Sequence record: PP541514.1
Strand: one strand, 5' to 3'
DNA: 43,322 bases
Source: Escherichia phage PSK2
Both the position numbers and the translations under genes were made by a program. Below, piece after piece: positions 4,109 through 5,809 of this stretch (the first letter of the stretch is position 1; the number at the start of each line of letters is the position of its first letter). The notes beneath the pieces are model-generated. The model had not been told where the DNA came from. It was given only the letters and a program-made list of their open reading frames with translations, and searched no databases.

Positions 4109-5809
4109 ATGCAAGAGACTGACAAAGTAACCGTAGATGCAAACGTACCTGCCTACGAGGGTTGGACCATCAAATTTCCAGAAGGGGCCAATGCTCTTCC
4201 ACTGAAGGATAGTATGTACTCTTCCGGGGATTACTGGTGCCAACTTCCCTACCTATCAACTCAAGGCCGTGCGCGCGTGCAAAGTAACAAAACCCGTGCG
4301 CTTTTGAATGGCTTTTATATGTTGTCAAGGGTGCTGCCGGGGTATATTGTAGCACTCGGCAACTTTACAGCTGCAGGAGAGGATTTGGGTGGGTATGTTG
4401 GGCCGCTGGGCACGGTTGATATTAGTGACACTCTCCTGCATAACCTCTTTGACTGTGTAGGTATCTGCGACCAAGCATTCGGTTTATCTAGCAGAACCTT
4501 CTATGATGGCCCTGACGTAGTTACAGAACGCGTAGTAGAAGCGGTCCAATACTTTACCGGATACAAGGTGCACAAACAGGCTATAGAGTTGTTCGAAGAG
4601 GCTATGCTAACACCTAATCACTACCTCCGGGCCAAGTATCTGCGCGGATATGCTCGTGGTGATGGGGACTACTGGGCCGCAACCTTGCTTATGCAGTTGC
4701 ACGGATTTGTGGTGTCTAGATTTGCAATCCCCCTGGGTTTTGGCTTCCGCAACGGTGAACCTGTAGTAATGCTGGGGCAGCCGCGACTGCACAAAGATTA
4801 TGCTGCAATTACAGAGTATCGCTGTGTAGAGATGCGCGTAGGTAAGTGGCTCGCTAACTATTACGGCGGCGGTGTAGACTTCCGGGAATGTATCGAAGAT
4901 CTCAAGGCTATGAATGTGGAGCCTACTACATATCTTTGTAAGACCGAGCGGGAGTGGTACGACGCGTACGAAAATGGCCCGCGTAGCTGCATGACCGGAT
5001 ACAACTTTGAGTATAGCCCGGTGCGTGTATATGCCACGACTAGTCACGGCTTGCCGGATAATGGGCTGCGCTTGTTCATCCAGTATACCGGTGAACTTTT
5101 TGGCGACGACTTTAAAGTGCACGCCCGCGCTATCGTTAACATCGAAACCAACGAATACGTCCGTGCATACGGAGATGCTGCGGACGCCATTCTACGTGCT
5201 AATGGGTATGAGTGCGATACAGACTGCTTAGGTGGCGCACTACTGACACGCATTCCGCACCCAGAGAATGAGGGTGCCGTGCTTATGCCGTACTTAGACG
5301 GGAATCAAGATGGGGTAGATGAAAAGGGGGATAACGCGTTCGTTATCTGCGACTGCTATGACTATGAAGCACAGGACGTTGACGGGTACATTTGGATTGA
5401 TGATGGTCGCAGTGCTTGTGCAGAGTGCGGGGGACGTTTCGACGAGGATGCCATGTACATAACTTGTGACGGTGGTTATGTATGCCCGCACTGCATCGGT
5501 GATACTTACGTACAGGTAGTAGGACGCAGCCGGGTATATCCAACATGGGATTGCTCGTGGTCTGACTACCATGATTCTTGGGTATTCGACTGTGACGTAG
5601 AACATTGTGCTGTAGAGGGTGTAGTGTATGATGAAGAGCCAATGGTGTGCGCACAAGGGTACAATGTTCTGAGTGGGCATGCCGAAGAACACCCCGTGCA
5701 CGGTATGATTCTCACGGAGTATGCTGCATCCGTATTGGATGAGCCTTACCTCGGCAACGAGGAAGCTAAAGAAGACAAAGAAGCTAACGCGGAACAGGAG
5801 GCAGCTTAA
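4109..5809 (+). CDS. Large early protein of unknown function (about 566 aa) with Cys-rich, zinc-ribbon-like C-terminal region and acidic tail
   Basis: ATG at 4109 preceded by GGAGA; same frame as track ORF 3815-5809, whose first 98 codons would overlap the upstream gene; Cys clusters CDCYDY, CAECGG, CDGGYVCPHC, DCDVEHC. Confidence 0.55.
   Translation: MQETDKVTVDANVPAYEGWTIKFPEGANALPLKDSMYSSGDYWCQLPYLSTQGRARVQSNKTRALLNGFYMLSRVLPGYIVALGNFTAAGEDLGGYVGPLGTVDISDTLLHNLFDCVGICDQAFGLSSRTFYDGPDVVTERVVEAVQYFTGYKVHKQAIELFEEAMLTPNHYLRAKYLRGYARGDGDYWAATLLMQLHGFVVSRFAIPLGFGFRNGEPVVMLGQPRLHKDYAAITEYRCVEMRVGKWLANYYGGGVDFRECIEDLKAMNVEPTTYLCKTEREWYDAYENGPRSCMTGYNFEYSPVRVYATTSHGLPDNGLRLFIQYTGELFGDDFKVHARAIVNIETNEYVRAYGDAADAILRANGYECDTDCLGGALLTRIPHPENEGAVLMPYLDGNQDGVDEKGDNAFVICDCYDYEAQDVDGYIWIDDGRSACAECGGRFDEDAMYITCDGGYVCPHCIGDTYVQVVGRSRVYPTWDCSWSDYHDSWVFDCDVEHCAVEGVVYDEEPMVCAQGYNVLSGHAEEHPVHGMILTEYAASVLDEPYLGNEEAKEDKEANAEQEAA

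Follow-up and report, generated by a model that had tools for sequence, protein, structure and literature searches.

A conserved early gene of Escherichia phage PSK2, paired with a zinc peptidase gene, encodes a candidate thiol-dependent enzyme with an ssrA-like Ala-Ala end

We analysed an early gene of Escherichia phage PSK2 (sequence record PP541514.1; one strand, 5' to 3'). The whole stretch of 43,322 nucleotides (nt), called the window here, is a complete or near-complete genome of a Drulisvirus-like phage (KP34-like, Autographiviridae/Slopekvirinae). The gene at 4109–5809 encodes a protein of 566 amino acids (aa) and is followed by a zinc peptidase gene in all of the loci compared. Our results suggested an enzyme, and not a passive binder of the zinc-finger kind, as the most likely identity of the 566-aa protein, whose function is unproven. 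The reading that we favour, tentatively as a whole, is an early thiol-dependent enzyme module with a co-translated exopeptidase and an Ala-Ala end that would engage ClpX. The gene pair contains the following features.

4109–5809, + strand: coding sequence of the 566-aa protein plus stop, a member of PHROG 6980 (MQETDKV...EQEAA on translation from ATG 4109)
4109–4678, + strand: lineage-specific N-terminal region (aa 1–190), predicted as a small beta/alpha domain, a low-confidence linker (aa 78–107) and a helical part
4691–5383, + strand: family-wide alpha/beta core (aa ~195–425) with weak GNAT-like fold similarity
4976–4993, + strand: GPRSCM motif (aa 290–295), with S293-C294-M295 identical in 135 of 135 distant members
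5417–5494, + strand: putative Cys4 zinc ribbon C437-x2-C440-x18-C459-x2-C462, kept in 93–98% of 135 distant members and 100% of near ones
5507–5713, + strand: about 10 short beta strands (aa 467–535) by structure prediction
5744–5806, + strand: acidic C-terminal tail (aa 546–566), with a helix predicted at 548–565 at moderate confidence
5796–5801, + strand: AGGAGG Shine-Dalgarno (SD) sequence of the peptidase gene, embedded in the last codons of the 566-aa protein
5809–6843, + strand: MH-clan (M28/PepT-like) zinc peptidase, 344 aa, with Pfam and PDB profile matches and intact metal/catalytic residues

The strict gene pairing is the strongest functional clue. A peptidase homologue was the next gene on the same strand in 84 of the 84 fetched loci that extend past the stop codon of the 566-aa protein (window included; about 14 lineages), starting 0–71 nt downstream, with one locus at 484 nt. 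These loci came from Drulisvirus, Bucovirus, Rhizobium phage Pasto, a Vibrio-phage-like clade and metagenomic phages with SU10-type portals, and the homologues in the last group are only 24–35% identical to the protein of the window. In all Drulisvirus and Bucovirus loci, as in the window, the stop TAA (5807–5809) overlaps the peptidase ATG (5809–5811) to give TAATG, an arrangement which, judged from the nucleotides, implies translational coupling of the two genes. Since the pairing is so strict across very distant phages, the two proteins would be expected to work together, and we regard functional coupling of the 566-aa protein to the peptidase as quite probable. This partner had no place in an earlier note on the window, which was made by a model from the sequence alone.

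The partner gave a match to Pfam Peptidase_M28 (23.0 bits against a cutoff of 21.3), and its closest solved sequences were tripeptidase/Peptidase T (E=3e-11), with PDB 3rza and 3gb0 at E of about 1e-10. HHpred analysis of the peptidase of phage fHe-Kpn01 gave a DapE match (PMC7291057). The HxD, GAD(D), EE, D and H metal/catalytic motifs of Peptidase T/tripeptidase (M20B) and M28 aminopeptidases are all present, and H65, D67, D101, E127, E128, D155, D197, H219 and E223 were identical in the 14 full-length lineages compared; wherever a locus included this stretch of the peptidase, all nine were retained. The partner differs from M20 enzymes in having no lid/dimerisation domain, with only about 70 residues from the EE motif to the last His region, and from both M20 and M28 enzymes in about 90 additional aa at its C-terminus.

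The earlier note had proposed structure prediction and a structure-based search for the 566-aa protein. AlphaFold2 with 148 sequences, including distant representatives, gave a model with a predicted local distance difference test score (pLDDT) of 86.2 and a predicted template modelling score of 0.71. The pLDDT fell below 50 only at residues 1–7 and 78–107, and the tail was of moderate confidence. A run with 20 close sequences alone (pLDDT 41.6) was discarded. Foldseek found nothing in the PDB at E<0.1, and confident homology to a known enzyme family was found neither in the sequence searches nor in the PDB structure searches. The structural neighbours in BFVD were all uncharacterised proteins of Klebsiella, Shigella (Buco), Vibrio, Pectobacterium (Nobby, CB5), Pseudomonas and Caulobacter phages.

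The strongest conservation lies in the central core with its invariant Ser-Cys-Met, rather than in the Cys-rich C-terminus that the earlier note had put forward; the N-terminal ~190 residues could be aligned in only 15–54% of distant members. The hallmarks of the core are Y287, G290, S293-C294-M295, Y308, R340, R352, Y354, G355, L362, G366 and P394-Y395-x-D397. Among the 135 distant members, S293-C294-M295 and D397 were kept in 100%, R340, Y354 and Y395 in 98–99%, G366, Y308, Y287, L362 and P394 in 95–97%, R352 in 88%, and G290 and G355 in 86–87%. This pattern makes C294 a candidate catalytic thiol, and for an enzyme with C294 at its active site we consider the case evenly balanced. By eye, the conserved residues do not seem to fit a C-X5-R phosphatase loop, PD-(D/E)xK, a KxDG nucleotidyl-transferase motif or a papain-like Cys-His dyad.

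GNAT-fold acyl/aminoacyl transferases (PDB 3i9s, 2dxq, AAC(3) enzymes, RimI-like proteins, FemA 1lrz and Sbb17 9wqx) were compared with the core, to which they show 4–12% sequence identity. The core has no match to an acetyltransferase hidden Markov model: the acetyltransferase models of Pfam clan CL0257 matched neither the query at E<=1 nor 28 diverse family members at E<=10. In the comparison with GNAT motif A (Q/R-x-x-G-x-G/A), which lies in the beta4-alpha3 loop and binds the pyrophosphate of CoA, R352 (88%) and G355 (86%) were considered. Unlike GNAT enzymes, the 566-aa protein has an invariant Cys in an alpha1-alpha2-like loop, and its domain is embedded in a long protein with a zinc ribbon. 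Four points weigh against the catalytic, GNAT-like reading of the core: no invariant His or Glu was found to pair with C294; sequence models for GNAT or any enzyme family gave no support; the third position of motif A (A357 here) is not conserved, most members having E, D, N, S or a gap there; and the alpha4 helix of the GNAT core fold is not predicted. We consider GNAT-type chemistry doubtful.

The C-terminal cysteines were the basis of the earlier note's reading, a multi-zinc-knuckle binder of nucleic acid or of a host factor through a Cys/His-rich C-terminal domain. The motifs that it listed are all present (CDCYDY at aa 414, nt 5348; CAECGG at aa 437, nt 5417; CDGGYVCPHC at aa 453, nt 5465; DCDVEHC at aa 494, nt 5588). 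Only five of the protein's 20 Cys (which it has beside 14 His) are conserved family-wide, namely C294 and the four ribbon Cys, around which short beta strands were predicted at 427–452. The CDCYDY pair (C414/C416) is kept in 47% even of close relatives, and C453, C495 and C514 in 21–47% of them. Because only five Cys are conserved across the family, one Cys4 zinc ribbon rather than two or more knuckles is highly probable, so that the earlier proposal stands for one site and fails for CDCYDY, C453 and the Cys of DCDVEHC. Zinc binding by this ribbon is likely. C482, C500, H524 and H528 are invariant in the near clade only (C500 is found in 47% of distant members), and this pattern suggests that they may form a second, lineage-specific metal site.

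The strong conservation of the ribbon and weak zinc-finger/LIM-like matches are in line with the binder reading. The top Foldseek matches in the PDB were LIM domains, at a non-significant E of 0.15–0.6, and LIM domains and other zinc ribbons share with the 566-aa protein a CxxC-x18-CxxC pattern on short beta hairpins. Unlike LIM, the 566-aa protein has one conserved site instead of two contiguous fingers, and it does not have the LIM spacing (C-x2-C-x16-23-H-x2-C-x2-C-x2-C...). A LIM domain was rejected on the single conserved 4-Cys site, the missing C2HC + C4/C2HD spacing and the Foldseek E>=0.15. The binder reading is opposed by the variable Cys outside the ribbon, by the stronger conservation elsewhere in the protein and by charge: the Cys-rich segment 426–545 has an isoelectric point (pI) of 4.16, with 4 Lys/Arg against 23 Asp/Glu, and the whole 63-kDa protein has a pI of 4.48, with 42 Lys/Arg against 89 Asp/Glu. 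A nucleic-acid binder is thus unlikely and a host-factor binder possible; the multi-knuckle reading as such seems to us very unlikely.

The acidic tail described in the earlier note is present (EEAKEDKEANAEQEAA at aa 551–566), and its key feature is the terminal Ala-Ala, not acidity alone. Ala565-Ala566 (nt 5801–5806) are the last residues of the protein and form an ssrA-like end. Ala-Ala was found at the C-terminus of 117 of 120 near homologues, and of 61 of 125 complete distant representatives (complete core, at least 30 residues after the ribbon) versus 1.3 expected from tail composition. A terminal Ala was present in 81 of the 125; the endings VA, SA and TA add 13. The residue before Ala-Ala was I, L, V or A in 33 of the 61 and Glu in 15, and the 15 residues preceding Ala-Ala had a median net charge of -3. 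In the diverse alignment Ala-Ala closed almost all of the sequences, these preceding residues were unrelated between lineages, and the tail was conserved only at its very end. No other protein of the window ends in Ala-Ala.

In Drulisvirus and Bucovirus the last codons (GAG GCA GCT TAATG) also carry the AGGAGG SD and the overlapping peptidase start, and it is only there that Ala-Ala could be a by-product of the SD or of the stop-start overlap. Pasto and loci L006, L007, L008 and L077 have Ala-Ala encoded by other Ala codons, with their own SD 20–55 nt further 3'. Because distant clades keep Ala-Ala with different codons and a separate SD, the constraint on these two residues acts on the protein.

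To our knowledge, among widely conserved systems of bacteria only one recognises a free Ala-Ala at the C-terminus, namely the reading of the ssrA tag of transfer-messenger RNA (tmRNA) by ClpX. The 566-aa protein shares with the ssrA tag/ClpX C-motif-1 degron (..LAA-COOH) a terminal Ala-Ala after a non-conserved, probably flexible tail. Its tail, unlike ssrA, is encoded in the gene and not added by tmRNA, and has an acidic context of the kind linked to weak tags. A random-tag screen in E. coli found that the terminal Ala-Ala was critical for ClpXP-dependent C-terminal degrons, that Ala-Ala alone was insufficient, and that hydrophobic tags of neutral or positive charge performed best (PMC10862746). 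Since the strong tags of that screen had this character, ..AEQEAA would be at best a moderate degron. The favourable context, a hydrophobic antepenultimate residue with neutral or positive charge, occurs in many distant members (LAA, IAA, VAA). Weighing against recognition by ClpX are the Glu at -3 and the net negative charge of the PSK2 tail, which lacks the favourable context; the absence of Ala-Ala from about half of the family, including a Vibrio-phage-like clade ending in ..EDEE and others ending in ..SLI, ..ALR or ..HGR; and the local conservation of the Drulisvirus tail, which is partly at the nucleotide level (SD of the peptidase gene). We rate the reading of Ala-Ala by ClpX as possible, at a little under an even call.

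The same tail, flexible, acidic and ending in small residues, could instead serve the partner peptidase, docking into its exopeptidase active site, being trimmed by it or regulating it within a complex. The strictly conserved, translationally coupled gene pair agrees with this explanation, as do the exopeptidase type of the MH-clan partner (nearest to tripeptidase/PepT and catalytically intact everywhere) and the conservation of the tail only at its very end. However, the peptidase catalytic residues are the same in clades with and without Ala-Ala, and no co-variation of tail type with these residues was seen. The PepT and M28 relatives belong to the aminopeptidases, enzymes that bind the free N-terminus of a chain and not its C-terminus, and this too speaks against a C-terminal tail as their ligand. 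We consider a tail made for the peptidase improbable.

A non-enzymatic acidic decoy is a further alternative. It would act as an ssrA-mimicking competitor of ClpX(P), for example by blocking the protease-dependent activation of toxin-antitoxin defences, or as a DNA or protein mimic. The low pI, the excess of Asp/Glu over Lys/Arg and the Ala-Ala end suit such a role, and in Pasto the gene adjoins ArdA. T7 Gp4.5 and T4 PinA, phage proteins that inhibit proteases of the host, provide a precedent. However, a 63-kDa size, an invariant Cys/Arg/Tyr/Asp constellation and an obligatory intact peptidase are more than a decoy needs, and Ala-Ala is missing in half of the family, so that we hold a pure decoy to be decidedly unlikely.

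Expression of a homologue has been observed. In purified particles of phage fHe-Kpn01, g12 (the homologue of the 566-aa protein), g13 (the peptidase) and g14 were positive by liquid chromatography-tandem mass spectrometry (LC-MS/MS), unlike the primase, the helicase and the DNA polymerase (PMC7291057 Table S2). Since it was detected in this way, the homologue is made and is reasonably stable or abundant; the earlier note had named lack of expression as a finding that would count against its claim. The authors reported 'no significant hits' in HHpred for g12, and left it out of their toxicity screen (PMC7291057). Two GenBank records call the homologue 'putative structural protein', a name that we trace to this particle detection.

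The recovery with particles argues against rapid degradation. It weakens the case for rapid ClpXP turnover in that host and leaves open a role as particle-associated cargo, in which the 566-aa protein, the peptidase and the next gene product would be packaged, delivered and act before phage gene expression. The contrast between g12–g14 and the replication proteins favours cargo. On the other side, 29 of 56 fHe-Kpn01 proteins were scored as particle-associated, some of them carried over according to the authors (PMC7291057); all lineages examined have the gene in the early block, at a distance from the genes for structural proteins; a capsid-targeting signal is not evident; and a terminal Ala-Ala would be odd for a stored protein. 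Cargo is compatible with an enzyme, and we think it unlikely. Several of these alternatives are not mutually exclusive with the favoured reading, the thiol-dependent enzyme module with its exopeptidase.

The 566-aa protein matched PHROG 6980, which has no function assigned, at E=0 and 1028.9 bits (aa 6–559 against profile positions 96–654). phrog_13313 was a weaker match, and distant family members also matched phrog_6980. Scans of the protein against Pfam, NCBIfam and PADLOC found no family; PADLOC gave 0 families at E<=1, that is, no match to a known anti-phage defence model. phmmer and profile searches of PDB sequences returned chance-level zinc-finger matches only. The earlier statement that the protein has no recognisable family therefore holds for Pfam, NCBIfam, PADLOC and PDB sequences, and does not hold for PHROGs (phrog_6980). 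Among 48 distant or long family members no Pfam domain was found at a meaningful E-value and none had a match in NCBIfam or PADLOC, and the longest members showed no domain fusions. A RefSeq note calls the Buco/HRP29 gp9 homologue (L074, 3237–4961) a 'putative GIY-YIG endonuclease', which no scan supported.

Of the phage records in GenBank, 294 encode a homologue (232 for Klebsiella, 42 for Vibrio and 9 for E. coli, with others for Shigella, Acinetobacter, Pseudomonas and Cronobacter), nearly all annotated 'hypothetical protein'. The top protein matches, at about 91% identity, were from Escherichia phages EC22.5-2, ZH5 and Minorna and Klebsiella phage KPV811. An exhaustive profile search of 1.84 billion representatives gave 977 clusters at 50% identity with E<=1e-3, 204 of them with E<=1e-10, and the region common to the matches was query aa ~240–520. 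The PHROG 6980 family is spread over diverse podophages. In the literature, no study of this family was found, and only the fHe-Kpn01 proteomics table and the ssrA-degron screen were relevant.

The gene is real and almost certainly starts at ATG 4109. It was listed as an open reading frame (ORF) at 3815–5809 (+ strand, 664 aa), which becomes 566 aa when counted from ATG 4109, and the earlier note had wavered between this ATG with its ribosome binding site and the upstream start at 3815. Two features bear on the choice.

3718–4062, + strand: conserved 114-aa gene of unassigned function, supported by its substitution pattern; homologue of fHe-Kpn01 g11
4096–4099, + strand: SD sequence GGAG, 9 nt before ATG 4109, kept in 6 of 6 aligned Drulisvirus loci

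The upstream gene (alternative extent in the ORF list 3718/3619–4062) is in another frame than the 566-aa protein. Across five loci, substitutions by codon position over 3815–4059 were 37/27/73 in the frame of the upstream gene, favouring position 3, and 27/73/37 in the frame of the 566-aa protein, favouring position 2. Amino-acid identity over this region was 75–89% for the upstream gene versus 40–62% for the putative extension. The frame of the 566-aa protein is open for 345–378 nt 5' of ATG 4109 in most Drulisvirus loci examined, and the 98-codon in-frame extension at 3815–4108 (Minorna, L001, 3562–3855) showed no coding constraint. ATG 3815 was rejected on this ground and on its overlap with the real gene at 3718–4062, ATG 4070 on its replacement by ATA in 3 of 5 other loci, and ATG 4052 on its position inside the upstream gene without an SD. 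From ATG 4109 onwards, M1, Q2 and E3 are invariant in 20 homologues, and substitutions in the first 300 nt are 47/54/92 by codon position, enriched at position 3. We assigned the start to ATG 4109 because the extension is unconstrained, the GGAG and the M-Q-E are conserved, and ATG 4070 and ATG 4052 fail. Homologues in 294 phage records together with the position-3 bias show that the gene is not a chance ORF.

In the published annotation of fHe-Kpn01, too, the gene begins at this start (g12, 556 aa; PMC7291057). Many GenBank records (Minorna, KPV811) and gene calls give a 664-aa product overlapping the 114-aa gene, and about 95 N-terminal positions of the PHROG 6980 profile correspond to this mis-annotated extension; the common annotation error is corrected here. 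The earlier note had also called an early protein of this size unusual in a T7-like genome. Since the gene is core-conserved in Drulisvirus, it is not unusual for that genus. In Klebsiella phage Kpn13 (L002, OQ790081.1, about 1300–3220), the 114-aa upstream gene is truncated by a 2-nt deletion, and a frameshift gives the homologue of the 566-aa protein the ending ..NRRQLNVWC in place of ..EAA, in a tail that overlaps the start of the peptidase gene. Either an error in sequencing or a natural variant without the tail may account for this.

The gene is part of a block of co-directional genes that has a promoter upstream of it and the primase, helicase and polymerase genes downstream. Two features at the left side of this block were recognised.

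1345–1379: strong terminator-like hairpin (14-bp stem and T-run), just before the promoter
1522–1550, + strand: sigma-70-type promoter, near-consensus TTGACA-17-TATAGT, 11 of 12 hexamer matches (consensus match only)

From their sequence, the hairpin and the promoter look like the boundary of an early transcription unit; on the + strand from 2267 to 7741 no convincing terminator-like site was found by consensus matching. Near the left end, a 210-aa ORF (708–1340) contains an HNH-like motif (..HVDHMLPL..AGNIQVIPAALN..) and is probably a homing or HNH endonuclease. The 114-aa gene at 3718–4062 (MLTVDETALLCWRLLETQGKCGC...) has no Pfam match, and its homologue g11 was non-toxic in an initial screen and not particle-associated (PMC7291057). 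After the peptidase, a 153-aa gene (6840–7301) also has no Pfam match. It is the homologue of fHe-Kpn01 g14, which gave a weak HHpred match to the type 2 dihydrofolate reductase (SH3-like) fold (PMC7291057), and it is not kept beside the pair in distant phages.

Other neighbours were seen in distant phages. Rhizobium phage Pasto (L073, 1450–4557) has the pair immediately after an ArdA-like antirestriction gene at the left end of its genome, and it carries a tyrosine integrase gene as well. In two distant metagenomic phages, a DUF2201 (VWA/metallopeptidase-like) gene lies 3–4 kb downstream of the pair (L007, 14328–16794; L009, 9452–11707); it is preceded in L007 by a MoxR-like AAA_5 ATPase gene (weak Pfam match) and in L009 by a 351-aa gene without a Pfam match on record. 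These DUF2201 genes may be another host-manipulation module.

In the favoured reading, the gene at 4109–5809 would encode the larger component of an early module of two genes that is conserved among phages, and the translationally coupled MH-clan zinc exopeptidase (5809–6843) would be the second. The variable N-terminus (aa 1–190) would select what the module acts on. The Ser-Cys-Met loop of the core, amid near-invariant Tyr, Arg and Asp, would form a candidate thiol-dependent, acyl-transfer-like active site, and the Cys4 ribbon with the beta-hairpin region would be a structural or docking element. The Ala-Ala tail would probably hand the protein over to the ClpXP of the host and so limit how long it lasts, or would at least engage ClpX. 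Early in infection, the module would have a protein or peptide of the host as its target, in host takeover or anti-defence. A more specific form, speculative and in our judgement unlikely, is a 'protein-terminus editing' module, in which a GNAT/Fem-like thiol-dependent transferase, itself carrying an ssrA-tag mimic, and the exopeptidase would alter the termini of proteins or peptides of the host early in infection. If that form is true, ClpXP would destroy the transferase on schedule or be occupied by the ssrA mimic, with a possible shield from ClpXP-dependent responses such as toxin-antitoxin activation.

In conclusion, a large family (about 1000 clusters at 50% identity), without a Pfam entry, a solved relative or a published function, is carried by phages of Klebsiella, E. 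coli, Shigella, Vibrio, Pectobacterium, Pseudomonas, Caulobacter and Bradyrhizobium, and its gene belongs to the conserved core of Drulisvirus phages, which are in use for Klebsiella therapy. Three concrete handles are now available: the invariant site at Cys294, the zinc peptidase as an obligatory partner and the Ala-Ala end that resembles ssrA. If this end is a true signal for ClpX, viral genes that encode the quality-control tag of the host would have a widespread example here, and such a tag could time an early effector or interfere with the protease.

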